A DNA stretch of 42,552 nucleotides, from NCBI GenBank assembly GCA_963805625.1, contig CAWDVE010000001.1, positions 1-42,552 on the forward strand. Direction: 5' to 3'. Under the pieces are notes generated by a model. It saw only the letters and a program-made list of their open reading frames with translations. It was not told where the DNA came from and made no database searches. The stretch comes from an uncultured Candidatus Rokubacteria bacterium. GTDB lineage: Bacteria > Methylomirabilota > Methylomirabilia > Rokubacteriales > DASRDR01. Position numbers and translations under genes: made by a program. Shown one piece after another: positions 8,266 to 34,730 of the stretch; positions within the stretch are counted from its first letter, which is position 1, and each line of letters begins with the position of its first letter.

Positions 8266-8544
8266 GTCGAAGCCTGGCTCCAGCTCTCGATCTACAGCTA
8301 CGCGACCTCGATGAACGGCCTCGCCAACCAGGAGGACCTCCGGCTCCGCTTCGACGTGCTCACGAAGACGAAGCAGCCCGAGCTCCACCGCTACTGGACG
8401 ACCCGCGACCGCGCCGCCAACGTGCGGCTCTACCGTCTGGCGGCCAAAGTCCTCGCCGCCGTCGACGCCGGCGTCTTCCCGCCGCGCGTCGGCTGGCACT
8501 GCCAGGACTGCCCGGTGCGGAGCCGGTGCTGGGCGTGGGGGTAG
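8266..8544 (+). pseudogene. PD-(D/E)XK (RecB/Cas4-like) nuclease C-terminal fragment, copy 1
   Basis: LQLSIYSYA (QxxxY motif) and terminal HCQDCPVRSRC (CxxC-x5-C Fe-S ligands); N-terminal catalytic half absent. Confidence 0.75.
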
Positions 8545-8728
8545 CGGAGTCACGAGCTTGGGTCGGACCGGCGAGATTTGCCCCATTTCCGGGGACTTCC
8601 TGGCCGGCGAACGCTCGGTGCCGAGCCATAAGCCTTCGGATTCATTCACCTGCGTTCTGGCCGTTCCCTTGCCTCTTTCGTCGGCGCAAGCAATCGAGCA
8701 GCGACCCGACGAAACGAGGGAGGACGCG

Positions 8729-9472
8729 ATGCGATACCGAGTGAAGCGACGCATCATGGCCTGGACGGCGGTGCCCCTGCTCGTGGCCCAGTTCGGCTGC
8801 GCGGCCCGGACCGTCGCGCCCTCACCCGCTGCGCCAGCGGTCCCGATCGCCGAGGTGGACCGACAGGCGTGTGAGGCCTATGCGGACAAGCATCCATCCA
8901 AGTCGGTACTGGCTCGCACGCTGGTCGGAGGCTTGCTGCTCCTGCCTCTGGGCGCGGGGGTGGCAGTCCTTGGCATGGCCGTGGGGCGACCCGATGGCCT
9001 GATCCTCCCGTTCATGGCTTTCAATCCCGCGATCGAGGCCGCCAAGGAGAATCGCACCACGCGGGAGGCTGCCATGGCCGCATGCCTCGACCCCGCTATC
9101 CAGGCGCAGACGCTCGGCCCGCGGCACCCGAGCGTGGCGCGGAGCCTCACCCGCCTGGCCGACGGCTACGCCGTCATCGGCGACCTCACCCAGGCCGAAG
9201 GGCTCTACCAGCGCGCTCTGGCCATTCAGGAGGAACGTCTCGGAACCGACCATGACGACGTGGCCCTGACTCTGGCGGGCTACACGGCACTGTTGCGGAA
9301 GCAAGGCCGCGCCGCCGAGGCCGCCGAACTCGACGGCCGCATCGAGGCGATCCGCACCAGGGCCGCTGCCGAGGAGAACCACGCGGCGGGCAGCGAACGC
9401 GGGCCGTCTGAGGGCGCGGCGGTCACCGAAGGTGGTGCTCCCTCTCCCGCGTTGTCCCCGCTGCGCGAGTAA
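8729..9472 (+). CDS. TPR-containing putative lipoprotein
   Basis: GGGAGG RBS; signal peptide with AQFGC lipobox-like motif; kinesin-light-chain-type TPRs (LGPRHPSVARSL...AEGLYQRALAIQEERLGTDHDDVA). Confidence 0.8.
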   Translation: MRYRVKRRIMAWTAVPLLVAQFGCAARTVAPSPAAPAVPIAEVDRQACEAYADKHPSKSVLARTLVGGLLLLPLGAGVAVLGMAVGRPDGLILPFMAFNPAIEAAKENRTTREAAMAACLDPAIQAQTLGPRHPSVARSLTRLADGYAVIGDLTQAEGLYQRALAIQEERLGTDHDDVALTLAGYTALLRKQGRAAEAAELDGRIEAIRTRAAAEENHAAGSERGPSEGAAVTEGGAPSPALSPLRE

Positions 9473-9615
9473 GATCCGTGTCCCTCCGAGCCGCTGGCCC
9501 CTCTGGGATCTTGTCGTGCCGACCCGCCGTGCGCGACCCTCTGGCCACGCTGGCGCACGGCGCGCACGAAGCGGACGCCAGGTCAGGAAGGCAGGCGACG
9601 TCCGTTGCACCGGCG

Positions 9616-9815
9616 TCCGCTTCGACGTGCTCACGAAGACCCAACAGCCCGAGCTCCACCGCTATTGGACGACCGGGGACCGGGCGGCGAACGTCCGCCT
9701 CTACCGCCTGGCCGCCGATGTGCTCGCCGCAGTCGACGTGGGCGTCTTCCCATCGCGCGTGGGTTGGCACTGCCCGGACTGCCCGGTCCGGAGCCGCTGC
9801 TGGGCGTGGGGGTGA
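9616..9815 (+). repeat. PD-(D/E)XK nuclease 3'-end fragment, copy 2
   Basis: RFDVLTKTQQPELHRYW...HCPDCPVRSRCWAWG*, homologous to 8345-8544. Confidence 0.9.
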
Positions 9816-10001
9816 GCATCGTGCGATCCTGCTGTGGCGTCCGCAACGGCGCACACGCGGTGCGGGACGCACTTCGCGCTGACCCTCAGCGACACGGGCA
9901 GTGCCGCTGCCGATCCCGGCGCGACCCCTACGGGTACGTGGTGCTGCCCCGCAGGCCCGCTGGCGCGGACGATCGCGCCGCCGCGTCGGGATATCGAAGA
10001 C

Positions 10002-10520
10002 TCAGACCGGTCGTGATGGCAGAGAGAGGACGGAGGTGCGATTGTGTCGGACCGCACGCAAGTGCGAGGAGACGTCCCGGCCATTCAGCGTCACGGTGGC
10101 GGCGCCGGGCGGCTGGCTGAAGAATATCGGTCCGTGTGCATGGGAGGCCAGGATGTCCACACGGGCATCGTGCTGAGGATAGTGGGCGATGCGACCCAGA
10201 CCGAACGCCGTGGTTTCCAGAGTTCCGTGTGGAGACACTACTGTAAGCGCAGCGGCCCAACATTATCTGAGGTCGTCATGGCTACGTAGCAGCCCAAGGC
10301 CTTGTCCACGAGCAGCCAGGCCGGGCGGTGGTCCGTCGTCAAGACGGCGCCTTTCAACTCGATGCGGCCGGTCTTCCCGGCCCTGACGGTGTCGGCATCC
10401 ACGGACGGCGGGTCATAGCGCTGGCCGTTGACCTGGCATTCGATGAGGTCGTCGGTCTTGAGGTCGACCTTGATGGAGATGGTGTCGGCGCTGCTGCGGT
10501 AGATCGGCCCGTCCCTAGCG
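10002..10520 (-). pseudogene. Frameshifted C-terminal fragment of an unidentified protein
   Basis: Two protein-like frames (TISIKVDLKTDDLIECQVNG...GPLRL, then VVSPHGTLETTAFGLGRI...TVTLNGRDV) joined by a shift near 10240; no start. Confidence 0.35.
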
Positions 10521-10527
10521 CGGCTCG

Positions 10528-10872
10528 TCAGTCGCAGCGCTTCAACAGGATGTCGACCATCTTCACCGGCCGGCTCGTCGTGTTCCGGGTGTCGTGCGGC
10601 GTCAGACCCGGGAGCCAGTAGGCAGTCCCGGGCCGCAGCACCGTGCGCCCCGATGGGCTTTCGAGGACGATCTCGCCGTCGACGATGATGCCGACCTCTG
10701 CCTCGATGCCTTGATGCAGCCCGGTGCCCGTGCCCGGCGGATATGTGACGATCGTGATCCGCACCGAGGGGTTCTCGAGGATCACCTCCGGCATGGGCGG
10801 CTGGGCGGTGGCCGAGACCGGCGCCAGGGCGCCCGCAAGGATGAGGATCCTGAGGATCATCGACATGTCCAT
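10528..10872 (-). CDS. Secreted cupin-domain protein
   Basis: Signal peptide (ILRILILAGALAPVSATA), ENPSVRIT, cupin motifs TGLHQG...E and TPHDTRN; GAAGGGGG RBS. Confidence 0.8.
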   Translation of the reverse strand: MDMSMILRILILAGALAPVSATAQPPMPEVILENPSVRITIVTYPPGTGTGLHQGIEAEVGIIVDGEIVLESPSGRTVLRPGTAYWLPGLTPHDTRNTTSRPVKMVDILLKRCD

Positions 10873-11135
10873 GTCCCCCTTCTCGCATGATGCCTCCGCG
10901 ACCACGTCACGGCCGGCGCGATCCTTACGGCCATCATCGGATTGATCAAGAACAGGATGAGCTAGCCGAACTCGGGTTCGTATCTCGAGGCCGGTTCAGC
11001 CGGCTACCATCTCCTCAGCGCGGCCGCCGTCCTGAACACTGTGCCGATGCTGATCGCCCTCATCATCCTGCGGCGCCGCATCATGGAGTCGGTCGCCCTC
11101 GGGAATTCCCCATGCCGGGTCGGCCCGACAAGCTG

Positions 11136-12473
11136 TCAGCCCCCCGGTGCGAGCCAGAGAAGCGCGAAATAGAAAACGAAGCTGGCGTAAAGGAGTCCCA
11201 GGATGGCATGGGTCGCTTGGCGGACGCGCTGTGGGAGTGCTTCGAGGCCGAGAGCCAGCAGAGCAAGGAGGCCGGCAGTGGCGGGAAAGAGGTTCCGCCC
11301 CTGGAATACGGACCAAACCTCGGAGCGGTAGCCGGTGAAGACGACAAGCGCCAGGCTGGCGAGGAGCAAGGCGGCACTCACACCCTGTAGCGACCGACGC
11401 TCGCGCTCGACGGTGGACAGGGGAGGGCCGGCCACGGCGAACCGGCGGCGAGACACGAGCCGGATCAGGCCGATCCCCATCGTGAGCGTCGGCCCGAGAG
11501 CCAGGACGTAGATGACGGGAGCGACGAGCCGATCAGCCGTCGCGGACCGGAGGTTCGTCTCCGGAATGTGGGGGTACCAGAAGGTCGCGTACGTGAGGAG
11601 TGGGTATGACGAGGTCGTGGCCGGGCCCACCAGCGGGTTCCGGACCAGGGTGGCGATGCTCGGGAACTGACGCGGCTCGCCGGGCTTCCGCTTCTGAGCG
11701 AGGATGCCCGGTGGCGCCAGCTCGAGGGCGGTGACGGCTGGCCGGCCGTAACGGACGATGTCGTTCACGAACTTGTAGGAGCCAACGACGCCCGCGATCA
11801 GGACAAACGCGAGCCCGGCTGCCAGCACTCGTCGCCACCCTCGCCGGCGCTCTGTGACCAGGACCAGCCCGAGGAGACACGGCGCAAAGGCCACGAACGT
11901 CAGCTTCGTCAAGAGCCCTAGTCCGAGAAGCAGGGCCAGGTCCCTCCGGGAGCTGCCGGATGGGCGGCGAATGTAGGCGCGGGCTTGAAGGACGAGGAGG
12001 GAGCCGAGTGCGAACGCGAGCGCGTCGTTCGACACATAGTTTCCGAACAGCACGAGCTGCGGGAGGAACGCCGCCAGCGAGAGACACAGAGCCCGACAGG
12101 TCTCCCCGAGTGATCCGTCTCGGAGAAGGACGTAGAGAACGTAGAGGTTCACGATCGAGAGCAGCAGCGAAAAGGCCTGGGCAGCTTTCCAGCCGCCCGC
12201 GACGACCCAGGGCAGGGCAAGGAGATAGTAAAGTGGCGGGTGGTAGGCTTGCGGGACCGCGCGGATGTCGGGGAACCGTCCGGTAGCCAGGAACGCCGTG
12301 ATGACGCCGGCGTGGTCATCGTTGTTGAAGGGGCTCTGATAGAGGTAGACGAAGATCCTCAGGGCGATGCCGGTGGCCAGAATGATCTGGAGATGATGCT
12401 CCCGGTGCCCGCCTTCCCCGTCCGCGCCTGACGCGCGCCACTGCGCTCGCACCGGGGGACGCCAGCCGATCAT
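11136..12473 (-). CDS. GT-C fold membrane glycosyltransferase (ArnT/PMT-like)
   Basis: Multiple TM helices; NDDH luminal loop, QAYHPPLYY, VSNDALA, LLTKLT, QGRNLFP. Confidence 0.8.
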   Translation of the reverse strand: MIGWRPPVRAQWRASGADGEGGHREHHLQIILATGIALRIFVYLYQSPFNNDDHAGVITAFLATGRFPDIRAVPQAYHPPLYYLLALPWVVAGGWKAAQAFSLLLSIVNLYVLYVLLRDGSLGETCRALCLSLAAFLPQLVLFGNYVSNDALAFALGSLLVLQARAYIRRPSGSSRRDLALLLGLGLLTKLTFVAFAPCLLGLVLVTERRRGWRRVLAAGLAFVLIAGVVGSYKFVNDIVRYGRPAVTALELAPPGILAQKRKPGEPRQFPSIATLVRNPLVGPATTSSYPLLTYATFWYPHIPETNLRSATADRLVAPVIYVLALGPTLTMGIGLIRLVSRRRFAVAGPPLSTVERERRSLQGVSAALLLASLALVVFTGYRSEVWSVFQGRNLFPATAGLLALLALGLEALPQRVRQATHAILGLLYASFVFYFALLWLAPGG

Positions 12474-12536
12474 CGACCAGTCCTCATGCGGCTGAGACCG
12501 CCGCGCGGCCCGCGGCGTCGGACGCGGCCTTCCATG

Positions 12537-12920: not shown

Positions 12921-12932
12921 CGGAGCCCTCCT

Positions 12933-13859: not shown

Positions 13860-14485
13860 GCCGAATCCCGATCAGCTGACGGGAGCGGCCGCCCTACCGC
13901 GCGCCCAATGGCGCGGGGTGTCAGCACGTGCGCGGCTCTGGCGGTGATGGCGCGACGAGTCCGGGCGAAGTGGGGACCAGAAGGGTGTCGTCGGCCTTGG
14001 AGATGCGTGATCATTGTGGCCCGCGTCCCTGTAGGCTATTGCTCGTTGACGGAATATATCACGCAACGGTCGATGCGCGGGGTAATACCTGAAGGGCGCG
14101 CCACCCCGCATTCATGCCGTGGCCTGGTAGTGTCGTGGACGATCATTGGCGGCGCGCCGGCAGGACGAACACTGGGTCCGGTCAATCGTGGAGTCGGGCT
14201 TCACGGACGACAATGGGATCGAGCCAATCGTGCTTCATTCCGGGAAGCAGCTCGATGCCTCGAGCGCGCCCTTGGCCCCCCCAAGTCCGGGCGATCTCAT
14301 GGTTTGGCATCCTCATGTCGTGAGGGTAGCCGTTCGAGCCTTCGGTAGGCCGAATGATGGTCACCGGCGAGAGCCGGACGCCATGGTAGGTGCGGTATCA
14401 GCATTCACGCCTTGGTTCCGTTCCAGGTGATAGCCGTTCTCGCTCACCACGGCCAAGAACAGACTTCGAACCCCACGTTGACGCC

Positions 14486-14742
14486 CTGGCCGCGAAGCCG
14501 CCGCCGGGCGGCCCGTCCCCGCCGCCTGACCCGCGCGCGATCGCGCCCACCCCGTGGCGCGGCTGTCCCCGTCTGTTCGCCGGCACGGGGGGAGGGTTCC
14601 GGGCCCCTCCCGCGCCGACCTCCCGCTGCCGTTGCCTGGCTGACTGGCCGCGCGCTACCCTCTGGGCTCGGGGGCTGACGGGCGAGCGGGGAGGACGGGG
14701 GGCGGGGGAAGGAGACCGGGAAACGTGGCTAGCACCTCCTAC
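14486..14742 (+). mobile_element. IS91-family right end (last codons of transposase plus oriIS-like terminus)
   Basis: 14486-14582 is similar to 20320-20415 (...GGCGGCCCGTCCCCGC.GCCTGACCCGC...TCCCCGTCTG.TCGCC); ends CCTAC immediately before GTTC, an IS91-type target tetramer. Confidence 0.55.
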
Positions 14743-14747
14743 GTTCC

Positions 14748-15270: not shown

Positions 15271-15313
15271 CCGCACCGGCCCGCGCTGCCGGCGAGGCCG
15301 AGCGCCGCGCCTG

Positions 15314-16991: not shown

Positions 16992-17795
16992 CTCGACGGC
17001 GTGTACACGCGCGCGAGCCCGACCGCACGGCCGGTGTTCCACCGCCTCCCGCTGCCCACCGACGCCGACATCACGGCGCTCCTCACGCGGCTGCACCGGC
17101 GTGTGCGGCGGCTCCTCGCCCGCCGTGGGCGGCTGCCGGACGACGAGGGCCGCGACGCGTTCGCGGTGCAGGCGCCGCTGTTCGCGAGCGCCGTGGCCGC
17201 GTCGCTACAGGGCCGGGTCGCGCTCGGCCCGCGCGCCGGCAGCCGGTGCGACGCCTGCGCTCAGCGGTCGATGCGATCGCGACGGGGCGGCGCTCCGCCC
17301 GGCTGGAAGGCTTCAGCCTGCACGCGGACGTCGTGGTGCCGGGGCGCCGACCAGCTGGAAAAGGTGTGCCGTTACATCTTGCGCCCGCCGCTGGCCGTGG
17401 CGCGGTTGACGGAGAGCACCGGCGGGCCGCTACTCTACCACTTCCGACGGCCCTGGCGCGACGGCTCCACGGCGCTCGTGTTGGAGCTGCTGGAGCGGTT
17501 GGGGCGGCTCGTCGCCCTCGTGCCGCCGCCGCGCCGGCCGTTGCTCGCGTATCACGGGCTCCTCGCCCCGCGGGCCCGCTGGCGCTCGACGATCGTCCCG
17601 CCGCCCGCGCCTGACGACGGGCGCGCGGACGCCGGCGCGCGCTCGCCGAGACGGTGGCCGCGGGCGCGGCTCCTCCACCGGGTGTTCGCGAACGAGGTCC
17701 TGGTGTGCGACCGCTGCGGGGGCCCGCGCCGGATCCTGGGCGCGGTGACCGAGCCTCACGCGGTGCGGCGGCTCCTCACCGCCCTCGGCCTCGCG
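16992..17795 (+). mobile_element. IS91-family (rolling-circle, HUH) transposase remnant, frameshifted and truncated at both ends
   Basis: LDGVY, GFSLHA, LEKVCRYILRPP, PWRDGST, LVPPPR..LLAYHGLLAP and C-terminal CxxC; frameshifts near 17240 and 17345. Confidence 0.85.
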
Positions 17796-19477: not shown

Positions 19478-19550
19478 AGCGCGCGGGGAGGGGCGAGGGC
19501 CCCAGGGGTTTACCTGGATGGCCCCGGGGCTTCCCTGGACTGTCACCCTG

Positions 19551-19805
19551 CTGGCGGCGTCGCTCCAGGGCCGGGTGCCGCTGGGCCCACGGGCCGGGCA
19601 CCCAGTGCGTCGGCTCCGCTCGGCGGCCGCCGTGACGGCGACCGGGCGGCGCTCGGCCCGATTGGAGGGGTTCAGCCTGCACGCCGACGTGGCGGTCCCG
19701 GCCCGCCGGCGGGACCAGATGGAGAAAGCTCTGCCGGTACATCGTGCGCCCGCCGCTGGCGCTTAAGCGGCTGACGGAGAGCACGGGGGGACCGCTGCTG
19801 TCTAT
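19551..19805 (+). mobile_element. IS91-family transposase internal fragment
   Basis: AASLQGRVPLGPRAG...GFSLHADVAVPARRRDQ...CRYIVRPPLA..RLTESTGGPLL; homologous to about 17195-17440. Confidence 0.85.
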
Positions 19806-19925
19806 GCTGCCGCTGACGTGTTGAAGGCCCATCCGACGCGGGTGAACGCCTTCGCCGCGCCACAGACAGGTCCCCTGGCCGCCCTCGTGGAGGACCGCGT
19901 TGTGCCGCTCGGTCTGCCGGTGCGT
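19803..19925 (+). pseudogene. Shard resembling an L-asparaginase internal segment
   Basis: YAAADVLKAHPTRVNAFAAPQTGPLA resembles the asparaginase DVxKxHT...AFxSP..GPL segment. Confidence 0.45.
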
Positions 19926-20001
19926 GATGCCATTGTCGCCGCTCGTGCACGGTTGGCTGGCGCATCGACCGGCAAAGACTCGCCGGTGATAGCATCGGAG
20001 C

Positions 20002-20196
20002 ATGAAGCGTCTCTATCGCAGCACGGACAACAAGATCGCAGGGGGAGTGATCGGAGGGATCGGCGAGTACTTCGACGTCGACCCGGTGCTCCTTCGACTT
20101 CTCTATGCGGCCGTCACCGTATTCACGGGCGTGATTCCCGGGCTCATCCTCTATGTCGCCTCGCTCTTCATCGTTCCGAAAAAGCCGGCGCAGTAG
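20002..20196 (+). CDS. pspC: PspC domain-containing protein
   Basis: MKRLYRS..NKIAGGVIGGIGEYFDVDPVLLRL followed by a TM helix; GGAG RBS. Confidence 0.88.
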   Translation: MKRLYRSTDNKIAGGVIGGIGEYFDVDPVLLRLLYAAVTVFTGVIPGLILYVASLFIVPKKPAQ

Positions 20197-20197
20197 C

Positions 20198-20415
20198 CCG
20201 GTGCTCCGGTAGGTGTTCGCGGTCGGGGTGCTCGTGTGTCCCCGCTGTGCCGGCCCGCGCCGGATCCTGGGCGCGGTGACCGAGCCTCCCGCGGTGCGGC
20301 GGCTCCTCACCGCCCTCGGCCTCGGCGCGGAACCGCCGCCGGGGCGGCCCGTCCCCGCGGCCTGACCCGCCCCCTGATCGCTCGCCGACGCCGTCTCCCC
20401 GTCTGCTCGCCGCCG
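20198..20415 (+). mobile_element. IS91-family transposase C-terminal fragment plus downstream sequence
   Basis: VF..VLVCPRC..PRRILGAVTEP.AVRRLLTALGL, stop TGA 20363-20365; homologous to 17670-17795 and 14486-14582. Confidence 0.8.
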
Positions 20416-20420
20416 GTTCG

Positions 20421-20484
20421 CCGCGGGTCGGCTGGCACTGCCAGGACTGCCCGGTCCGGAGCCGGTGCTGGGCGTGGGGGGTGA
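20421..20484 (+). repeat. PD-(D/E)XK nuclease 3'-end fragment, copy 3
   Basis: PRVGWHCQDCPVRSRCWAWG with one extra G before TGA. Confidence 0.9.
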
Positions 20485-20621: not shown

Positions 20622-23600
20622 ATGCACTGTCCCCGGTGCCAGCACGAGAACCCGCCATCGGCGAAGTTCTGCCTGGAATGCGGAGGCCGGCTTGCGCCCA
20701 CATGCACCCAGTGCGGCACCGCGCTGCCGGCGGGCGCAAAGTTCTGTCTGGAGTGCGGTCAGCCCGTCAGCGCGCCACCCGGGCGATCTCCGTCGCCCCA
20801 GGGGTATACCCCCAAGCACCTCGCCGAGAAGATTCTCACGTCGAGGAGCGCTCTGGAAGGAGAACGCAAGCAAGTCACGGTGCTCTTTGCCGACCTGAAG
20901 GGCTCGATGGAGTTGCTGGCGGATCGCGACCCCGAAGACGCGCGCAAGCTCCTGGACCCCGTCCTGGAGCGGATGATGGAGGCCGTCCACCGATACGAAG
21001 GCACGGTCAACCAGGTGATGGGTGACGGGATCATGGCGCTCTTCGGGGCGCCCCTCGCCCACGAGGACCACGCGGTGCGCGCCTGCTATGCGGCCCATGA
21101 CATGCAGGCCACCATGCGCCGGTATGCCGTGGAGGCGCGTCGCGCCCACGGCGTCTCGCTCGAGATTCGCGTCGGACTGAACTCGGGCGCAGTCGTGGTC
21201 CGGGCCATCGGGAGCGATCTCCACATGGACTACACCGCCGTCGGTCAGACCACGCACCTGGCGGCCCGCATGGAGCAGCTCGCGACGGGCGGCAAAACCC
21301 TGGTCACGGCCGACACGCTGCGGCTGGCGGAGGGGTACGTCGAGGTCACGCCGCTGGGGCCGGTGCCCGTGAAAGGCCTGGACACCCCGGTCGAGGTCTA
21401 CGAGCTGGTCGGGACCGGGGCCCGCCGCTCCAGGCTGTCCGCGGCCGCCACACGTGGATTGACGCGCTTCGTGGGGCGGGACGCCGAGCTAGACCAGCTG
21501 CGCCAGGCGCTCGGGCGCGCCGCCGCCGGGCATGGCCAGGTGGTGGCGATCGTCGGCGAGCCCGGCGTCGGGAAATCGCGGCTCGTGTGGGAGGTGACGC
21601 ACTCCCACCGCGTCCACGGCTGGCTCGTCCTCCAGGCCGGCTCGGTTTCGTACGGGAAGGCGACATCCTATCTACCGGTTGTCGACCTCCTCAAGGGCTA
21701 CTTCGCGATCGAGGACCGCGACGGTCCGCGCGCGATGCGCGAGAAGATGACGGGGAAGCTCCTGACGCTGGACCGCGCGCAGGAAGACAGCCTGCCGGCG
21801 CTCCTGGCCCTGCTCGACGTCCCGAGTGGCGACGCGTCCTGGGACGCGCTGGATCCCCGACAGCGTCGCCAGCGGACGCTCCACGCGCTCAAGCAGCTCC
21901 TGATCCGCGAGAGCCAGGTCCAGCCGCTGCTGGTGGTCTTCGAGGACCTCCACTGGATCGACTCCGAGACCCAGGCGCTGCTCGACGGGCTCGTGGAGAG
22001 CCTGCCGGCGACGCGGCTCCTGCTCCTCGTAAACTACCGCCCGGAGTATCAGCACCCCTGGGGGAGCCGGACCTACTACACGCAGCTCCGACTGGACCCC
22101 CTCCCGCCGGAGACCGCCGAAGAGCTCCTCCGCACGCTGCTCGGGCCCGACGCCCTCGAGCCGCTCAAGGGCATGCTGATCGCGCGGACGGAGGGCAACC
22201 CGTTCTTCCTGGAGGAGAGTGTCCGGGCGCTCGTCGAGACCCAGGCGCTCTCGGGCGAGCGCGGGGCGTACCGGCTGGCACGGTCGCTCCCGGCCATCGA
22301 GGTCCCCGCCACGGTGCAGGCGGTGCTGGCCGCGCGCATCGACCGGCTCGACCCCGGCGACAAGGCGCTCCTGCAGACGGCGTCGGTGATCGGAAAGGAC
22401 GTGCCGTTCGCGCTGCTCCAGGCGACGGCCGCGCTGGCCGAGGACGAGCTGCGCAGCGCGATCGGTCGCCTCCAGGCCGGCGAGTTCCTGTACGAGACAA
22501 GCCTCTTCCCGGATCTCGAATACACCTTCAAGCATGCCCTCACCCACGAAGTGGCCTACGGGAGCCTGCTCCAGGACCGACGCCGCCGCCTCCACGGCGA
22601 GATCGTGGCGGCCATCGAGCGCCTCTACCCCGATCGGCTCGGCGAGCACATCGACCGTTTGGGCCATCATGCCTTCCGGGCGGAGCGCTGGGAGACCGCC
22701 GCCGCGTACCTCCGGCAGGGCGGGCACAAGGCGCTCTCGCGCTCGGCGTTCCGGGAGGCCGTGGTCGCTTATGAAGACGCGCTGGTGGCGATCCAGCGCC
22801 TCCCCGAGACGCGCGAGAGGCAGGAGCAGGGCATCGACCTTCGGCTCGATCTGCGCGGACCCCTGCAGGCGCTCGTACGCATGAGCCGCATTCTCGAGCA
22901 CGACCGGGCCGCCGAAACCAGTGCCCGGGTACTCGGCGACGAGCAACGGCTGGGGCGGGTCTCGTCGGGGCTAGCCAACACTCTGTGGGTCACCGGCGAC
23001 CACGCGGCCGCGATCGTGGCGGCCATGCGCGCCCTGGACATCGGTCAGCGGCTCGGCGATGTTGCCACTCACGCGACCGCGGTCCTGCGCCTCGGGGCCA
23101 TCCACTTCACCATCGGGGAATACGAGAAGTCCGTGGCCTACCTGCGGCAGGCACTGGAGCTGACCGCGGGTGACCGGCAGCGAGAGCGGTTCGGGATGAC
23201 GGCGAGCGCGTCGGTGCTCGCGCGCTACTGGCTCGCGCGTGCGCTCGGCGAGCTGGGGGAGTTCTCCGAGGGGCTGGCGGTCGCCCAGGAGGGCCTGGAT
23301 ACTGCCCTGTCTACGGACAACGTGGCCAGCCTCCCACCGGCCCACTCCGCGGTCGGGTCCGTCCACCTCCACCGCGGGGAGTGGGCGGAGGCGCTCGCGC
23401 CGCTCAGGCGAGCCGCCGAGGTCGCTCAGGTGACAGAAGTCCTCAACTTTGAGAGCACCTCCGTCGGCTTGCTGGGACTGCGAGACGTTCGCGCCGAGGG
23501 TCGGGCAGTTGGTGTCGCGCTGCTGGAACGCGCAGTCAGTTTGGCCGAGGAACGCGGTGAGCGGTTCAACCTGGCGCTCTTCAAAGGCTGGCTCGGCGAA

Positions 23601-23975
23601 GCGCAGCTCGCCGCCGGAGACCTGGAGCGGGCGAGGCGCTCCGGCCAGGCGAGCCTTGAGATGGCGCGCGCCCAGAGCCAACGCGGGACCGAGGCGTGGG
23701 CATGGCGGCTTCTCGGCGAAGTCGCCGCGGGGACCACCCCGCCAGGCGTCCAGGAAGCCGAGATCGCCTATCGAGAAGCGCTAACGCGGGCGACGGGGCT
23801 CCGCATGCGCCCGCTCATCGCACACTCCCACCTCGGCCTCGGCACGCTCTACCGCCACGCGGGCGACCCTGTACGCGCTCAGGAGCACCTGACCACCGCG
23901 GCGACCCAGTACCGCGAAATGGGCATGGGTTTCTGGCTTGGCCGGGCCGAAGGCGCGGTCCAGGGTGACAGATAG
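20622..23975 (+). CDS. Double zinc ribbon + class III adenylate/guanylate cyclase + AAA ATPase + TPR protein
   Basis: Four CxxC pairs, ERKQVTVLFADLKGS, MGDGIMALFGAP, Walker A GEPGVGKS, Walker B VVFEDLHW, TEGNPFFLEE, C-terminal helical repeats. Confidence 0.92.
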   Translation: MHCPRCQHENPPSAKFCLECGGRLAPTCTQCGTALPAGAKFCLECGQPVSAPPGRSPSPQGYTPKHLAEKILTSRSALEGERKQVTVLFADLKGSMELLADRDPEDARKLLDPVLERMMEAVHRYEGTVNQVMGDGIMALFGAPLAHEDHAVRACYAAHDMQATMRRYAVEARRAHGVSLEIRVGLNSGAVVVRAIGSDLHMDYTAVGQTTHLAARMEQLATGGKTLVTADTLRLAEGYVEVTPLGPVPVKGLDTPVEVYELVGTGARRSRLSAAATRGLTRFVGRDAELDQLRQALGRAAAGHGQVVAIVGEPGVGKSRLVWEVTHSHRVHGWLVLQAGSVSYGKATSYLPVVDLLKGYFAIEDRDGPRAMREKMTGKLLTLDRAQEDSLPALLALLDVPSGDASWDALDPRQRRQRTLHALKQLLIRESQVQPLLVVFEDLHWIDSETQALLDGLVESLPATRLLLLVNYRPEYQHPWGSRTYYTQLRLDPLPPETAEELLRTLLGPDALEPLKGMLIARTEGNPFFLEESVRALVETQALSGERGAYRLARSLPAIEVPATVQAVLAARIDRLDPGDKALLQTASVIGKDVPFALLQATAALAEDELRSAIGRLQAGEFLYETSLFPDLEYTFKHALTHEVAYGSLLQDRRRRLHGEIVAAIERLYPDRLGEHIDRLGHHAFRAERWETAAAYLRQGGHKALSRSAFREAVVAYEDALVAIQRLPETRERQEQGIDLRLDLRGPLQALVRMSRILEHDRAAETSARVLGDEQRLGRVSSGLANTLWVTGDHAAAIVAAMRALDIGQRLGDVATHATAVLRLGAIHFTIGEYEKSVAYLRQALELTAGDRQRERFGMTASASVLARYWLARALGELGEFSEGLAVAQEGLDTALSTDNVASLPPAHSAVGSVHLHRGEWAEALAPLRRAAEVAQVTEVLNFESTSVGLLGLRDVRAEGRAVGVALLERAVSLAEERGERFNLALFKGWLGEAQLAAGDLERARRSGQASLEMARAQSQRGTEAWAWRLLGEVAAGTTPPGVQEAEIAYREALTRATGLRMRPLIAHSHLGLGTLYRHAGDPVRAQEHLTTAATQYREMGMGFWLGRAEGAVQGDR

Positions 23976-25825
23976 TGCGCTGTCCTCGCTGTCAGACGGA
24001 CAACCGCCCCGAGCGTCGCTTCTGCGCTGACTGTGCGGCGCCCCTCGCGGTCGCCTGCCCATCCTGTGGGTTCTCCAATGAGCCCGGCGAGAAGTTCTGC
24101 GGTGGCTGTGCGACGGCCCTCACGGTGGTCGATCGGCCACACACGCCTCGCTTGATGGCCCCCGATGCCTACACTCCCAAGCATCTTGCCGACAAGATCC
24201 TCACGTCGAAGAGCGCCCTGGAGGGCGAGAGGAAGCAGGTCACGGTCCTCTTCGCTGACCTCAAGGGCTCGATGGAGCTCCTCGCCGATCGCGACCCTGA
24301 GGAGGCGCGCAAGCTCCTCGACCCGGTGCTCGAGCGGATGATGGAGGCGGTCCACCGCTACGAGGGCACCGTCAACCAGGTGATGGGCGACGGGATCATG
24401 GCGCTCTTCGGTGCGCCCCTCGCGCACGAGGACCACGCGGTGCGGGCCTGCTACGCGGCGCTCCGGATGCAGGAGCGCGTGAAAAGGTACGCAGACGACA
24501 TCCGGCGCTCACACGCGGCCGTCGTCAAGATCCGGGTCGGGCTCAACTCCGGGGAGGTCGTGGTGCGCGCCATCGGCAGCGATCTGCGCATGGACTACAC
24601 CGCCGTCGGGCAGACAACGCACCTGGCCGCACGCATGGAGCAGCTGGCCGATCCCGGCTCGATCGTCATCGCGCCGGAGACGTTGGCGTTGGCCGAGGGC
24701 TACGTCGAGGTGAGGTCGCTCGGCCCGGTGCCGGTGAAGGGGCTGGCAGATCCGGTGGAGACCTACGAGCTCATGGGTGCGGGGCCCCGGCGCTCGCGGC
24801 TCTCCGCGGCGGCCGCGCGCGGGCTCAGCCGCTTCGTGGGCCGGGACGCGGAGCTGGAGCAGCTTCGCGAGGCGCTCGCTCGCGCAGCCAGCGGGCACGG
24901 CCAGGTGGTGGCGATCGTTGGCGAGCCGAGCGTCGGGAAGTCGCGGCTCGTCTTGGAGGTCACCCACTCCCATCGCACCCACGGCTGGCTCGTCCTGCAG
25001 GCCGGCTCGGTCTCGTACGGCAGGGCGACGCCCTACCTCCCGGTGATCGACCTCCTCAAGGGCTACCTCCAGATCGCCGACCGCGACGAGCCCCGCGCCA
25101 TCCAGGAGAAGGTCACCGGCAAGCTCCTCACCCTCGCCCGCGCCCTGGAGCCGGCGCTGCCGGCCTTCCTGGCACTCCTCGACGTGCCGGTGGAGGACCG
25201 GCGGTGGGAAGTCCTGGACCCGCCGCAGCGACGGCAGCGCACCCTCGAAGCCCTGAAGCGGCTCCTCCTTCGAGAGAGCCAGGTCCAGCCGCTCCTGGTC
25301 GTGTTCGAGGACCTCCACTGGATCGACGCGGAGACACAGGCCGTGCTCGACCGCCTGGTCGAGAGCGTGCCGACGGCTCGGATCCTGCTGCTCGTCAACT
25401 ACCGCCCGGAGTACCGGCACGACTGGGGCGGGAAGACTTACTACCGCCAGCTCCGGTTGGACCCGCTCGCGCCGGAGAATGCGACCGCGCTACTGGAGAC
25501 CCTGCTCGGGAGCGACGCCGGCCTCGAACCCCTCAAACGGCTTCTGCTCGGGCGGACCGAGGGCAACCCCCTCTTCCTCGAGGAGAGCGTGCGGAGCCTC
25601 GCGGACGACGGCGTGCTCGCGGGCGAGCGCGGCGCGTACCGACTGGTGAAGGCCCCGGAGACCGTCCACGTGCCGGCGACGGTGCAAGCGATCCTGGCGG
25701 CGCGGATCGACCGGCTCCCGGTGGAGGGCAAGGATCTCCTCCAGACCGCGTCGGTCGTCAGCACCGATGTCCCCGTCGCGGTGCTCGAGGCGGTCGCCGG
25801 GCGAACCCCAGACGTGCTCGCGCGA
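23975..25825 (+). pseudogene. Second cyclase/AAA paralog, truncated before the TPR region
   Basis: Same domain order; GTG overlaps the upstream TAG; Walker A GEPSVGKS; homology stops near 25825. Confidence 0.85.
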
Positions 25826-26067
25826 AGCTTACGGACCAGGAACGGGCCGAGTTGTTCAAGACGATGGTGGCCTACGCCGGAACATTCACCGTCGAAGGCG
25901 ACCGGGTTGTGCACCACGTGGACATCTCGTGGAACGAGAACTGGACCGGCACCGCCCAGGCGCGCCACCTTCGGATTGAGGGGCGGCGGTTGATCATCCG
26001 TGGCGAACAGATTGGGGTCGACGGAAGACAGATCATCGCCGTCTTGACGTGGGAGAGGTTAGGTTGA
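25826..26067 (+). pseudogene. Lipocalin-like domain C-terminal fragment
   Basis: LFKTMVAYAGTFTVEGDRVVHHVDISWNENWTGTAQAR...LTWER; no start, joined out of frame to the truncated cyclase. Confidence 0.75.
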
Positions 26068-26096
26068 GAGACGCAGCCCCTTCCGAACGAGGGAAG

Positions 26097-26333: not shown

Positions 26334-26336
26334 CCG

Positions 26337-28054: not shown

Positions 28055-28067
28055 CAGGAGGAACGTT

Positions 28068-29423: not shown

Positions 29424-29753
29424 TCACGCCCAAGAACAACCATCACGGTCAGATCGAGTTCATCCGGGGGGCGGCGATACCCGGAGTGGGAGCTCACGCC
29501 CGGCACGGGAATCGTGCAGCGCTGTTGATCGTCTGCTCCGCCCCAGCTCCGTCCCCATCGCCACGAGGACCCGGGCGGGTCGGAGCGACGGGGACGGCGA
29601 TCACCCTGAAGCGGGCCTGACGGGAGGCCCGGTCATTGACTGGGCCCCAGGAGCGGACGGATCATTGGCGCCATCACGGACAGTCGGGCGCGACGCGCGC
29701 CCTTGCCACGGGTCCGGTGGTCCGAGATGTGCTGACTCAGGGGAGGTTCCCGT

Positions 29754-31427
29754 ATGGCCCAAATCGAGGTGCTGAACCCCGTCGCGGAGGTTGTTCGTCA
29801 TTCCATCACGCCCGCCCCGCGCCGTCCCGACCTGCGCGGCGCGTCGATCGGCCTCTACTGGAACATGAAGGCGGGGGGCAGCGATGCCCTCGACCGCGCG
29901 GAGGCGCTGCTGCGCGAGCGGTTTGCGGGCGTGACGTTCAAGCGCTACCACGGCTCGGTGGGCTTCCTGATGCGCCACTGCACCGCGGAGGATTCCGATC
30001 GCATCGCCCGCGAGGTCCAGGCGGTCGTCGGTACCACCGCCGACTGAGGGTCGTGCACGTCGTGGGGTATCCACGACATGGTCGAGCTGGAGCGGCGGGG
30101 TGTCCCGACCGTCTTCTTCACCGCGAAGAGCTTCGTCCACGATGCGCAGCGCAGCGCCGCGAGCTTCGGGGTACCGGGCCTGCCCATCGCCGTGGTGTCG
30201 ATGCCTCTCACGAACCAGCGGGCGCCGGACATCCATGCCATGGTCGACGGCGCCATCGACGAGGTGGTGACCGGCCTCACACGTTCCGTCGAGACGGTCT
30301 CCGCGGAGCACGACCTGCCCGTGGCCGATGAGCGGCTGACCTACGGCGGCGACGATCTCCTTGCCGCCTGGGACGCCCTGCAAGCCGATTTCCTCAAGCG
30401 CGGCTGGGGGGACGGCTTCCCGCTCGTGGCCCCGACGCGCCGGCCCGTGGACGCGATGCTCGGCGGCACGAAGCGCGCGCCGGGGGACGTCATCGCCACG
30501 CTCGAGCCCGGCTTCGGCCTGGCCACGGTGGAGAAGCTGGCCATCAATGCGGTGATGGCGGGGTGCCGCCCCGAGCACCTCCCGTTCCTGATCGCGGCCG
30601 TCCGGTGCCTGGCCGAGCCGAAGATGTACCTCAGGAACAAGGCGATGTCGACCGGCCCCCACGCCCCGGTCGTCATCGTGAACGGGCCAAGGGGCCGGGC
30701 CGCGCGCTTCAACGGGGGAATGTGCGCGCTCGGTCCGGGCGCACCCTCGGCATCGAATACCGCCCTCGGCCGGGCGCTGCGGCTCACCATGATGAACGTC
30801 GGCCACACCTACGTCGGGGTGTCGGATATGGACACCATCGGCTCCCCGCTCAAGTACGCGTGCTGCTGCGCGGAGAATGAGTCGGATAGCCCCTGGGACC
30901 CATATCACGTCGTGCGCGGCTTCGGTCGCGAGGACAGCACGGTCACGGTTCACTTCGCCTACGGACTGTGCGAGCTCCACGACTTCACGAGCACGAGGCC
31001 CGAGGATCTGATCAGCGTCTTCGCCACCGCGGCCGCCAATGTCGCCCAGGTGGGTACGGGGCTCTGGCTGCTCGGCCGGCGCGCCGACCCGCGCTACAAG
31101 ACCTCCGAGAAGGAGCACAACACCCTCCTCATCTGCCCCGAGCACGCGCAGATCTTCGCGCGTGAGGGGTGGGGGCGCGAGCGGATCCAGGAGGCGATGT
31201 ATCGCGCGGCGCGCATGCCGTTCCGGACGCTCATGCTGAACAAGGAGCGGCCCGCCATGGCTGCCTCGCACCCGGAGCTTGGCTGGATGTGGGACCACCC
31301 GGATCTCCCGGTACCCATCGTGGAGGACCCGGGCTGCTTCGAGATCGTCGTGGTGGGGGGCGCGGCGGGGCGCGGGGCGTACTTCTACGGCGCCGGCGAG
31401 CCCGTCACGATGCCCGTCGAGGACTAG
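29754..31427 (+). CDS. UGSC-family selenoprotein (Sec at TGA 30045-30047), 557 aa after readthrough
   Basis: ORFs 29754-30047 and 30078-31427 are in frame; the junction reads TAD-U-GSCTSW; SECIS-like hairpin follows; GGAGG RBS before 29754. Confidence 0.85.
30059..30077 (+). promoter_or_regulatory. Putative bacterial SECIS element
   Basis: GTCGTGG-GGTAT-CCACGAC: 7-bp stem with a GU-containing loop, 11 nt after the UGA. Confidence 0.7.
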
Positions 31428-31595
31428 CCGACCGGGAGCCGGCACGTTCCGGGGTCTCCCAGGCTCACGCGCCTGGCTTGACGCCGGGCACGACGTCCGG
31501 GCCGTGCCCCAGCGCTCGGGCGCCCGGACGCGAGCGCGGCGATCGTCTCCACGCGCGCATTGCATGGGCGAGCGCATTGCCGGAAGGGGGATGAG

Positions 31596-33260
31596 ATAGC
31601 GGCCGACGTCGTCCTGCTCAACGGCCGCGTCGTCACGCTCGATCCCAGCCGTCCACGCGCGGCGGCCGTCGCGATCGCGGGCGATCGCATCATCGCCGTG
31701 GCCGGCGACGCCGAGATCCGCCGTCGGCGTGATCGCCGCACGCGGGTGATCGATCTGCGCGGCGCCACGGTCGTGCCGGGGCTCGTCGACGCGCACGCGC
31801 ACCTGGACCGAGAGGGGCTCAAGTACCTCTATCCCTCGCTCGCGCGATGCCGGTCGATCGCCGACATCCAGGCCGTGATCCGGCGTCTTGCCGCCACCCG
31901 GGCTCCGGGCGAGTGGATCGTGACCATGCCGGTCGGGACACCGCCCTTCTATCTGGATGCGCCCGCCGGCCTGCGGGACGGGCGCTGGCCGACCGGGGCC
32001 GACCTCGACACGGCGGCGCCCCGCAATCCCGTGTACATCCGCGGCATCTGGGGCCACTGGAAGGGTAAGCCGCCGGTGGTGTCGATCGCCAACAGCGCGG
32101 CGCTCCGGCGCGCGGGCGTCACCCGCGACACGGTGCCGCCGAAGGGCGTCGAGATCCTCAAGGACGCCGCCGGAGAGCCCACCGGTGTCTTCGTCGAGCA
32201 CAATCTCGTCCAGGTCCTGGAGTTCACGTTGATGCGGGAGGTGCCGCGCTTCACCCCCGCGGACCGCCTCCGGGCGCTCGTCGATTCTCAGCGCCGCTAT
32301 GCGGCTCGCGGCGTCACCGCCGTCTACGAGGGCCACGGCGTCGCGCCGGAAGTGTTGAGTGTCTATCGCGAGGCGCGCGAGCGGGGGGAGCTCTTCGTGC
32401 GGGCCTATCTGGCCCTGAGCCCGACGTGGGACGCGCCGGACGCTGCGCGGGCGATGCCCGACGTCGCGGCGTGGGCAGGAGGTCGCGGGCTGGGTGACGA
32501 GCTGCTGCGCGTCGGCGGCATCTGCCTCCATTACAAGGGCGATCCGGACGTCGCGCGCATCCTCCACGCGGCCCAGCCCTACACGGGCTGGGCGGGCTTC
32601 GTCGAGAGCGCGAACTCGCCGGAGTCGTATCGGGAGCAGGCCGAACTGGCGGCCCGGCACGGACTCCGTGTCGGCACGCTGGTCACGCGCACCCTGCCTC
32701 CGGTCCTCGACGCATGGGAGAAGATCGCGCGGAGCACGCCCATCGCCCACCTCCGGTGGGTGGCGGTGCACCTCAACGCGGCGCCCGCCGATCAGCTCGC
32801 ACGCCTGAAGCGTCTCGGCGTGGTGGTGAACACGAATCCGATCTCCTACCTCTGGCGATCAGGCGCGCACGAGGCGCAGATGCTGGGTGGCGCGGCCGAG
32901 ACGCTGTCGCCCCATCGCAGCCTGGAGCGGATGCGCCTGCCCTTCGGCCTGGCCACCGACAACAAGCCCGCCGATCCCTGGTTGGCGTTCCGGACCGCCG
33001 TCGAGCGCCGCGACATGACGTCGGGCGCGGTCGTAGGACCGCGCGAGCGGTTGACGCGCCTGGGCGCGCTGCGAGCGCTCACGGTCGGCGGAGCGTGGCT
33101 CACGTTCGCCGAGCGGCAGCGCGGCGTGCTCGCGCCGGGACGACAGGCCGATCTCGCCGTTCTCGAGGAGGATCCGCTGACCATGCCGCTCCGCGAAATC
33201 GAGTCCCTCGGGTGCCGGCTCACGATGGTCGGCGGGCGAGTCGTGCACGGCGAGGGCTAG
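31596..33260 (+). CDS. Amidohydrolase 3 family (YtcJ-like) metal-dependent hydrolase
   Basis: ADVVLLNGRV, IDLRGATVVPGLVDAHAH, GEPTGVFVE, GVLAPGRQADLAVL, TMVGGRVV; start uncertain (ATA 31596 or TTG 31560). Confidence 0.88.
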   Translation: MAADVVLLNGRVVTLDPSRPRAAAVAIAGDRIIAVAGDAEIRRRRDRRTRVIDLRGATVVPGLVDAHAHLDREGLKYLYPSLARCRSIADIQAVIRRLAATRAPGEWIVTMPVGTPPFYLDAPAGLRDGRWPTGADLDTAAPRNPVYIRGIWGHWKGKPPVVSIANSAALRRAGVTRDTVPPKGVEILKDAAGEPTGVFVEHNLVQVLEFTLMREVPRFTPADRLRALVDSQRRYAARGVTAVYEGHGVAPEVLSVYREARERGELFVRAYLALSPTWDAPDAARAMPDVAAWAGGRGLGDELLRVGGICLHYKGDPDVARILHAAQPYTGWAGFVESANSPESYREQAELAARHGLRVGTLVTRTLPPVLDAWEKIARSTPIAHLRWVAVHLNAAPADQLARLKRLGVVVNTNPISYLWRSGAHEAQMLGGAAETLSPHRSLERMRLPFGLATDNKPADPWLAFRTAVERRDMTSGAVVGPRERLTRLGALRALTVGGAWLTFAERQRGVLAPGRQADLAVLEEDPLTMPLREIESLGCRLTMVGGRVVHGEG

Positions 33261-33589
33261 CGCACGGCGGGCGCGACTACGGCCATTCTACCGTGGCCGC
33301 GCTCGAGGTACCGGCGCGGCCAGGCACGACATCATGCGGTCCCTCGGGAGCGAGCGCGTGGGCGCCCCCACCCTACCACCGGCGAGAGCATTGGCTGCTG
33401 AGCGATCCAAAGAAGGATGTGAGACGGGATGGGGCCAGCAGCGCGGCCCGTGAGGTGGCCTTTGCGCTGGCTCTGGAACTCGATGCCGGGTACAGGTAGG
33501 CGGCCTTCTAACTAACCCCGGCATGCAGGCGATGGCGTACAGCGTCCGGTGCGCTCTCGCTTCCCGCCGCGCCTGATGCCCGGCGTTAG

Positions 33590-33768
33590 AGACCAAGCAG
33601 CCCGAGCTCCACCGCTACTGGACCACCCGCGATCGCGCGGCCAACGTCCGGCTCTACCGGCTGGCGGCGGAGATTCTGGCTGCCATTGAGGCAGGCGTGT
33701 TCCCGCCGCGGGTGGGCTGGCACTGCTCGGACTGCCCGGTCCGGAGCCGGTGCTGGGCGTGGGGGTAG
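33590..33768 (+). repeat. PD-(D/E)XK nuclease 3'-end fragment, copy 4
   Basis: TKQPELHRYWTTRDRAANVRLYRLAAEILAAIEAGVFPPRVGWHCSDCPVRSRCWAWG*. Confidence 0.9.
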
Positions 33769-33901
33769 CTGGAGGCCAGCGGCGAGAGGGTGTGCCGGCC
33801 CGATTCACGATGTCTCAATCCGAGAGAACGGTCTGCGGGTCTGAGCGCGCCTGGCCGCTGCAAATTCCCCACGCGACGACGCGGGGGAAGACCGACGAGG
33901 C

Positions 33902-33917
33902 GGGCATGACGTGTGCT
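33902..33917 (+). promoter_or_regulatory. Possible sigma-54 (-24/-12) promoter
   Basis: GGGCATGACGTGTGCT fits GG-N10-GC with GGCA and TGCT; lies just before ATG 33930. Confidence 0.35.
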
Positions 33918-33929
33918 CACGGGGGCGGC

Positions 33930-34089
33930 ATGACCCGCCCATGTCTGGCGGCCCGGACCTACCAACGCCGCCAGCCCGAACAGACACTGCTGTACCGAAC
34001 CATTGCGACGCACCTGCCGACGTTCCTCGCGCGGACGGGGGGCGAGGACGGGAGCGGTGGGTGGCCGGCGTTTGTCCGGCGCGAGTTCG
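33930..34089 (+). mobile_element. IS91-family transposase N-terminal fragment
   Basis: YQRRQPEQTLLYRTIATHLPTFL...WPAFVRREF, the typical lead-in to the IS91 zinc-binding domain, cut before the Cys motifs. Confidence 0.8.
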
Positions 34090-34149
34090 CTACGCGACAC
34101 CGTCGCAGTATAGTTGTGAGGAGTTGACTAAGAACGAGGAGGATTTCCC

Positions 34150-34428
34150 ATGGCGAGGTTTCTGCTCGAGGTTCCGCATGAATCGGGGGTGGTGGCCTGC
34201 GCGCGGGCCAACAAGATTCTGCTCGAGACCGGCTCACACTTTCTGACCCACGCGGACTTTGGCTGCAACGATGGCGTCCACAAAGCCTGGATTGTCGTGG
34301 ACGTGAGCAGCAAGGAGGAGGCTCGCAATATGCTGCCTCCCACGTATCGTCGTCAGGCCACGGTCGTGGGCCTGTCCAAGTTTGGAATCAAGGAGCTGGA
34401 CGAGCTCATTCGGCATCACCAACGCTGA
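34150..34428 (+). CDS. Small hypothetical protein
   Basis: Strong GAGGAGG RBS, ATG, 92 aa protein-like sequence (HADFGCNDGVHKAW). Confidence 0.75.
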   Translation: MARFLLEVPHESGVVACARANKILLETGSHFLTHADFGCNDGVHKAWIVVDVSSKEEARNMLPPTYRRQATVVGLSKFGIKELDELIRHHQR

Positions 34429-34552
34429 ACGCCGTTGGGGACACTAACCCCACCCCGGTTAGCCGAGCCGCGCGTGGTTGAGGAGCGTCCATCGGGTCAT
34501 CGGCACCGGCTTTCAGCAGCGCCCGCATGACGAAGCAGCCGCGCTCCGCGTA

Positions 34553-34730
34553 GACTCGGCAGCCCGAGCTCCACCGCTACTGGACCACCCGCGACCCCGC
34601 GGCCAACGTGCGGCTCTATCGCCTCGTGGCCGAGATTGTCGCCGCCATCGACGCGGGCGCGTTCCCGCCGCGCGTGGGCTGGCACTGCCAGGACTGCCCG
34701 GTCCGGAGCCGCCGCTGGGCGTGGGGGTGA
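34553..34730 (+). repeat. PD-(D/E)XK nuclease 3'-end fragment, copy 5
   Basis: QPELHRYWTTRDPAANVRLYRLVAEIVAAIDAGAFPPRVGWHCQDCPVRSRRWAWG*; last Cys changed to Arg. Confidence 0.9.

Follow-up and report, generated by a model that had tools for sequence, protein, structure and literature searches.

Why should the 3' end of one gene occur five times on a single contig, always in the same orientation and each time in front of different DNA? This question is raised by a stretch of 42,552 nucleotides (hereafter the window), namely contig C1 (CAWDVE010000001.1) of the assembly GCA_963805625.1 (genome G000; 7.27 Mb in 28 contigs) from an uncultured Candidatus Rokubacteria bacterium. The window holds five co-oriented 3' ends, 62-279 nt long and 82-97% alike, of a gene encoding a 268-aa PD-(D/E)XK nuclease. 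The initial annotation, made from the sequence alone, regarded them as pieces of a Cas4/RecB-like gene that may act as a recombination anchor or element terminus for the capture of cargo, similar to an integron-like array. Here, we find that all five copies are non-functional 3' remnants left by the nuclease gene with which the backbone of an integrative element ends, and that they likely record successive cargo insertions, each of which pushed the resident tip and the old cargo downstream. The unpublished genomes G045 and G176 support no claim made below.

Five remnants of a nuclease gene

All of the remnants lie on the + strand and run to the stop codon, while they start at nt 529, 608, 743, 629 and 636 (of 807) of the nuclease gene, to which they are matched by BLASTN with E-values of 1e-22 to 1e-64. 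Remnant 1 (8266..8544) covers codons ~177-268 without the catalytic PD-(D/E)xK core, carries E237K and is matched by PF12705 (E 9e-8). Remnant 2 (9616..9815, codons ~203-268) carries R223G, E237D and P249S, and remnant 3 (20419..20484) consists of the last 20 codons with one extra G ahead of the stop. In remnant 4 (33590..33768, codons ~210-268) the conserved sites are unchanged except for the clade's own substitutions, and remnant 5 (34559..34730, codons ~212-268) shows R225P, L239V and C264R, with an imperfect short direct repeat at its 5' junction. Lesions beyond the clade-wide substitutions number 1, 3, 1, 0 and 3 in remnants 1-5, respectively. The initial annotation had located all five, and only the bounds of remnants 3 and 5 have been refined. 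Its shared ending RSRCWAWG holds insofar as every copy reaches the stop, but remnant 5 reads RSRRWAWG, having lost a Cys, and remnant 3 has the extra G.

Summed over all 10 pairwise comparisons in the window, codon positions 1, 2 and 3 carry 32, 18 and 113 differences. The four long remnants form 6 pairs, with dN/dS values of 0.09-0.23. Consequently, the divergence of the remnants took place while they were working genes, and decay began afterwards, in agreement with the distinct donors under selection that had been proposed. Each long remnant is nearer to the gene of genome G003 (89-95%) than to any other window remnant. Local tandem duplication is therefore ruled out, and the window remnants are, as judged from these distances, separate alleles. 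In a tree whose bootstrap support is not fully settled, the window remnants, the copy on contig C22 of G000 and the G003 gene form one clade (100/99), and the full gene of locus L097 groups with the remnant of the same locus (99/87).

Could the array be an artefact of assembly or binning? The contamination of this metagenome-assembled genome is 6%, and the last 8 kb of the window duplicate the end of contig C10. At 97.5%, window 34536-42552 matches the C10 end in reverse, and the nuclease match there is remnant 5 seen again. However, the remnants are 12-18% apart, the same architecture occurs in unrelated datasets, and four junctions are bridged by short-read contigs from two studies. Contigs of run X2 bridge the 5' junctions of remnant 2 (9082-9718, 5 differences) and remnant 5 (34102-34652, 14 differences), while contigs of run X1, which may be the source sample, bridge the 3' junctions of remnants 2 and 4; an X1 contig piece (33736-34470) also bridges the gene fusion at 33936..34428 between remnants 4 and 5. 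No bridging piece was found among the matches listed for the 5' junctions of remnants 1, 3 and 4. The junctions tested are not the chimeras that had been named as a possible objection, and an artefact is hardly credible. As a side observation, C10 ends just ahead of the 5' junction of remnant 5, which could be a low-coverage end or a strain variant.

The nuclease gene, its element and its tail

What, then, is the full-length gene? At least 370 relatives of the nuclease were found. Among 22 sequences, D150, D164-x-K166, Q182xxxY186, C255 and C258 are invariant, and C23 and C264 are conserved in at least 90%. The full nuclease family has RecB motifs, QxxxY and a 1+3 cysteine set, by which it resembles the Fe-S nucleases of the Cas4/AddB/AdnA type, while the window tips are devoid of the core and of C23. 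The best PDB matches are the helicase-nuclease chains 6ppu, 7sjr, 6ppj and 9np6 (E 4e-7 to 1e-5), which we take to be AdnAB. Unlike Cas4, AddB and AdnA, however, it is encoded by a stand-alone gene beside a Rad52-like gene. Its score of 43.3 bits lies under the TIGR00372 (cas4) cut-off of 65, the full genes neighbour SSB and Rad52-like genes with no cas1 or CRISPR context seen among the selected neighbour proteins scanned, and no CRISPR-like repeat family was found in the window, so the Cas4 label first given has to be dropped. The sole near-complete copy in G000, on C22, stands behind SSB and Rad52-like genes and has an internal stop at codon 63. Viral contigs gave 2 distant matches (26-28% identity) and plasmids 3 matching records (best 35%). 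Therefore, the nuclease is not a known phage or plasmid gene in those collections.

The nuclease gene stands last in a conserved backbone that belongs to an integrative element of Rokubacteria. Loci from metagenomes and genomes share one order: a DprA-like gene, a small regulator, SSB, a small gene, the Rad52-like gene, the nuclease and often a 90-aa gene, followed by the cargo. After the cargo come a small Cys-rich gene and a sigma-54 activator, and in L078 the order is finished by Xis and a tyrosine integrase. On C22, as in many loci, PF00436, PF04098 and PF12705 occur in order (SSB, Rad52-like, nuclease). Serine recombinases are located upstream at tRNA-Glu in L100 and L106. For the G180 element, which is located at tRNA-SeC, the search for an att repeat gave nothing. 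In each of the long element loci (L078, L083, L091, L137, L151 and L169), several imperfect GC-rich repeats of 55-60 bp flank the DprA-like gene on both sides. About 20 partial tRNA-Glu copies are present in G000 (window 2964-2992; C10, C11, C13, C14, C16, C17, C19, C24), several of them co-oriented on C10, in addition to the intact gene at C11:59807-59882. This scatter suggests repeated integration of serine-recombinase elements at tRNA-Glu.

The slot behind the nuclease is variable. The 400 nt behind 51 full nuclease genes fall into 25 flank classes, and the cargo includes HmaA/B, the DISARM gene DrmD, a type III restriction-modification (RM) methyltransferase and PDC-S06, as well as a copper ATPase with a MerR-type gene (read by eye). 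A cargo hotspot therefore begins, on its left, at the stop codon of the nuclease, and this accounts for the end of similarity at that point. The slot contains known defence systems and is also a place to seek new ones. The element continues beyond the cargo to the sigma-54 activator, Xis and integrase, and the flanks recur behind full genes. Consequently, the tip is not an element terminus, as had been suggested, and a terminus inserted at random targets is ruled out. Concerning the suggested recombination anchor, the nuclease end does mark a spot of repeated cargo gain; it may be a dedicated anchor or simply the last stretch of homology ahead of the cargo. In the literature searched, with subscription journals mostly outside it, no paper on the element or on nuclease-tip arrays was found, and the element family is apparently undescribed in an abundant uncultured soil lineage.

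Is it mainly the tail of the gene that is left behind? For G000, a BLASTN pile-up of 49 full genes was used, and a place was counted if matched by at least 10 queries. Of the 14 places, 1 is the full gene and 1 is a doubtful middle match of 33-55 nt. The other 12, of which 11 are distinct, begin no earlier than nt 517; the 11 distinct fragments thus all fall within the last 36% of the gene. Places matched by no more than 7 queries were treated as noise, among them two likely tips (C13, C19). For the order (183 genomes), rows listed at 43% identity or more were counted by hand, with 45 weaker rows outside the count. G000, 6 full genes and 4 copies cut at the 5' side by a contig edge were excluded, edges being unchecked for 4 others. 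Among the matches listed, 28 of the 41 partial loci reach residue 260 or beyond, 8 are mainly the 3' half and 5 are 5' or middle pieces. The N-terminus is as detectable as the C-terminus, since 30-aa windows score 120-129 (N) vs 111-147 (C). A Rad52-like control, which scored 15 candidates per genome only, gave 12 rows in 8 of the 183 genomes with no orphan tip seen among them, and for Rad52 and SSB there is no second element copy in G000 except one 67-nt match. This tail bias is both real and specific. The 3' bias seen in the window extends across G000 and the order. Fragments are not drawn evenly from the whole gene, as they would be under the random decay that had been named as the counter-case.

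Might the tip have been retained as a promoter, a site or a small peptide that serves the downstream gene? The four identifiable genes behind the window tips are co-oriented with them, and over the last 27 codons synonymous diversity falls a little (0.33, 8 sites). However, the first 27 codons are nearly as low (0.37), a sigma-70-like promoter was not found in 8200-10100, and the genes behind the third copy in L097 lie on the opposite strand. In addition, the tips bear frameshifts and changes at invariant residues. Such a function is therefore very unlikely.

Arrays at other loci and their origin

How could tips come to lie in series, each behind other cargo? At other loci, arrays with the order full gene, cargo, tip and older cargo are found. 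In L073, L133 and L151, the same 380-386 aa gene is located between the nuclease and a tip, with a DNA identity of 68-74% among the loci, which rules out an assembly chimera. Behind the tip of this triad come DrmD (L073), the usual 90-aa downstream gene (L133) and Hma-type cargo (L151). In L137, a full nuclease stands directly before the cargo found behind the tip of L151 (77% over 3860 bp), and in L109 a full nuclease stands directly before the cargo found behind the tip of L133 (76% over 311 bp). By their sequences, L137 and L151, as well as L109 and L133, look like before and after states, and the triad is the strongest evidence for displacement. The cargo protein of the triad (L151:13240-14400, L073:939-2099, L133:473-1615 (minus strand)) contains two CxxC motifs, has no NCBIfam match and is present in 2 of 151 class genomes, one of which is the source genome; its gene is a candidate defence gene.

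More broadly, 54 full-gene loci have 9 extra pieces, of which 7 are downstream on the same strand, 1 is upstream on the same strand and 1 is on the opposite strand. Tips that reach the stop follow an intact gene in L073, L097 and L151, and 3'-half pieces do so in L083, L084 and L146. L133, L147 and L145 have similar pairs of full gene and piece, outside the 54-locus count. In L083 and G180, the piece has the full gene on one side and the Znf/sigma-54 right flank on the other, and a second backbone is absent. The 400-nt flank of remnant 3 recurs behind tips at C7 and C13 (86-87%), and the flank of remnant 4 recurs behind tips at C16 and in G017. Thus, the claim that different DNA follows each copy is correct within the window but not beyond it. 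L120, L122 and L127 have a common 1.6 kb upstream and a common breakpoint (236) with three different 3' flanks, and they switch allele within the remnant, the 3' part and flank of L122 matching the full gene of L085. They fit tip recombination but were not counted, because they are short-read contigs with neighbouring identifiers and may be assembly mosaics. At L159:6859-7101 (G162), a nuclease piece is folded back as an inverted repeat against a tip.

Based on these arrays, we consider homology-anchored displacement the probable main route. A donor nuclease gene with cargo B would pair with the resident nuclease gene, and the far end of cargo B would join non-homologously inside the 3' part of the resident gene; alternatively, the donor would arrive as a circle already holding such a junction. 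The product would be full gene - cargo B - tip - cargo A, in which the 5' edge of the tip varies and the stop codon is constant. Because the cassette of cargo and tip has homology on both sides, it could then be exchanged among elements through ordinary homologous recombination. Collapse would remove long duplications and leave the short tips. The SSB/Rad52-like/exonuclease set of the element may catalyse these steps while tolerating 10-18% divergence; Rad52-like recombination is described as tolerant of sequence divergence (De Paepe et al., 2014, PMC3945230). The window has lost the backbone together with the leading gene's 5' part, and by analogy remnant 1 is likely a deletion product and remnants 2-5 likely displaced tips. 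Backbone deletion accounts for some solo tips, and IS91 for few.

Alternatively, whole elements could stack in tandem, at tRNA-Glu or by a single crossover of two elements, after which the redundant backbone is deleted and the cargo kept by selection, leaving the adjoining bit of backbone. This would yield the same end structure as displacement. The ~20 tRNA-Glu 3' fragments and 11 serine-recombinase matches in G000, several co-oriented on C10, speak of many integrations, at least 6 G000 tips are solitary, and in L100, L134 and L136 a 5'-truncated nuclease is fused directly to an integrase gene. However, there is no tRNA-Glu attachment scar between remnants 1 and 5, and spacings of 0.96-1.6 kb hold one gene. 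Moreover, the 300 nt upstream of 67 truncated copies gave 0 matches to Znf, sigma-54, Xis, Rad52 or SSB, 2 to integrase and 1 to RHH. The nearly intact state of the tips (0-3 lesions) is also a better fit to formation in one step than to slow erosion. Tandem stacking is thus unlikely as the main route.

Another possibility is one-ended rolling-circle transposition, in which an IS91/ISCR-like transposase located behind the nuclease would pick up upstream DNA of variable length; the circles would then reinsert at new sites or recombine into resident genes, in the way that ISCR1 handles the integron 3'-CS. Shards of such a transposase are common near the remnants, and its 5' end is found behind the tips at remnant 4, C16 and G017 and behind the full gene in L089, an ori-like end lies ~12 nt ahead of the tip in L129, and ISCR1 has been linked to integron 3'-CS duplications (PMC3575428). 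Against this, the co-oriented 3' flank is clearly upstream in only 2 of the 67 truncated copies (remnant 3 and L129), with a weak 43-nt match at remnant 2; the junction of remnant 3 falls short of the ori end; and the breakpoints share no tetranucleotide (by eye). Besides, the triad loci have no transposase match, and an intact transposase was not found in G000, where ~12 5'-truncated pieces occur. We regard this route as quite improbable.

Several observations also weigh against displacement itself. Only 10 of 53 tips have a flank resembling that of a full gene, and 6 of these 10 are long copies that may be simple 5' deletions. Among the 7 downstream same-strand pieces, 4 reach the stop and 3 do not, and the polarity is weak, since 7 of 8 same-strand pieces are downstream where 61% of the flank length is downstream (P ~0.11, by hand). 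The fusions in L100, L134 and L136 are plain backbone deletions. The DprA-like gene leaves a few orphan 3' pieces, which, with the scattered tRNA-Glu halves and the IS91 3' ends, indicate that G000 is scar-rich in general, and the Rad52-like control covered no more than 15 candidates per genome. In the window, the lesions give no age gradient of decay along the array, and the sole junction where microhomology was examinable has a 5-nt overlap (20419-20423, remnant 3). Neither the full nuclease gene nor the backbone is present upstream of the remnants, and therefore the window array is interpreted by analogy. Among the low-depth contigs of 5 runs, no joint of an excised circle or of a strain lacking a cassette was listed.

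A bolder picture, which we hold to be rather unlikely, is that of a self-loading capture platform free of att sites. For the element's SSB, Rad52-like protein and Fe-S nuclease, the nuclease gene's tail would serve as a permanent arm of homology, the cassettes of cargo and tip would be a pool shared among Rokubacteria elements, and defence and metabolic genes would be stacked by arrival order.

The growth of defence and cargo hotspots, as opposed to the swapping of their content, has so far mostly been inferred. In the arrays described above, a scar that can be read seems to remain from every gain, which allows events to be counted and before and after states to be paired.

The window region and comparable systems

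The DNA behind the remnants is as first described: a gene for a TPR lipoprotein, shards, a cyclase pair, an IS91-like 5' end and an ABC operon, all on the + strand. Between remnants 1 and 2, whose starts are 1271 bp apart, there is one gene for a TPR protein with a lipoprotein-like N-terminus (8729..9472; signal judged by eye), with a single weak match in 182 other genomes. Further on is an IS91-family 3' flank (14482..14700) ending in ...cctac/GTTC, a motif at which such flanks also end on C10, C11, C13, C16 and C22, and which is presumably the ori end. It is followed by the 3' half of an IS91/ISCR-like Y2 transposase (16995..17795; PF04986, NF052416 partial) and by a second transposase shard (19533..20423), the interior of which is replaced by a small foreign gene, PspC-like as named by eye (19800-20200). 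The 3' flank of this shard meets remnant 3 ~60 nt past the transposase stop, short of the ori end.

Behind remnant 3 are two zinc-ribbon/cyclase/AAA(/TPR) genes (20622..25993), which have many paralogues in G000, the second window copy being without the TPR part; the tip-plus-cyclase junction is seen again at C7 and C13, where the 5' breakpoints are different. In the interval from remnant 4 to remnant 5, the 5' ~55 codons of an IS91-like transposase are fused to a 92-aa gene (33936..34428), again a small gene in place of the inside of the transposase (34090-34430); the 92-aa gene (34150-34428) has no Pfam family. Peptide ABC transporter genes, with the binding-protein gene split by a stop, occupy 34871..38330 behind remnant 5.

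The sigma-54 activator at 39437..40459 on the + strand has 60% identity to the right-flank activator of the element, compared with 50-52% for most host paralogues, and judging from this similarity it likely marks the right side of the element. On the other side, a degenerate tRNA-Glu 3' fragment (2964..2992, + strand), oriented relative to the nuclease as in L100 and L106, is possibly a left attachment scar. Given the scar 5.3 kb to the left and the element-like activator 4.7 kb to the right, this part of the window looks like a hotspot that has eroded. A shard of another element (7388-8197) is also present at C10:2174492-2175283 and C13:354678-355388, and its small gene has an RSRKV motif in common with a gene often found behind the nuclease.

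Which known systems come closest? The integron is an analogy only, as the integrase of the L078 element scores 44.4 bits vs 265 for TIGR02249 (IntI), and the repeat is coding sequence with a variable 5' edge; an Rfam scan of the window gave no match, and no dedicated attC scan was run. Complex class 1 integrons with ISCR1 (PMC3575428) are similar in that an IS91-like element is beside partial duplications that bracket captured genes. However, the transposase here is tied to few tips and always broken in G000, and no duplicated segment was found to meet an ori end at its 5' edge, the near-match being 1 of 67 (L129), while remnant 3 falls short of the ori end.

Integrative and conjugative elements (ICEs) may carry recombination modules of their own, such as bet-exo of SXT/R391. 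The lambda Red/Rad52-like modules of temperate phages and ICEs (PMC3945230) share with the present element the adjacent SSB, Rad52-like annealing protein and PD-(D/E)XK nuclease, and presumably the relaxed-homology exchange. They are known to swap modules between flanking homologies, whereas nuclease-tip arrays were not met for them in the literature searched.

Displacement by recombination is the nearer precedent. In the immunity arrays belonging to the T6SS (type VI secretion system) of Vibrio cholerae, a new module is modelled to enter by a homologous anchor and an illegitimate joint, and older genes end up further back, in some cases together with a 3' remnant (Kirchberger et al., 2017, PMC5361080). 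Those are chromosomal effector-immunity pairs, however, and the anchor is not a recombination gene of an element. For rhs, displacement of C-termini via recombination through circles has been proposed, and the mafB cassettes of Neisseria are described alongside as a comparable system (Jackson et al., 2009, PMC2935791). As in rhs, an intact gene is followed by co-oriented 3' fragments of variable length and of the same clade, each with different DNA, a layout met at other loci but not in the window, which has no intact gene. Likewise, a part attached in one rhs strain is displaced in another, as in L137 vs L151 and L109 vs L133. The variable part of rhs is the in-frame C-terminus of the same toxin, whereas here homology stops at the stop codon, the cargo genes are distinct from the nuclease gene and unrelated, and the locus belongs to a mobile element that has recombination genes of its own. 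The arrays thus seem to work like rhs and T6SS displacement yet belong to neither, because the cargo lies beyond the stop codon, and they would carry the displacement model beyond polymorphic toxins, to whole genes, mutually unrelated, of a mobile element.

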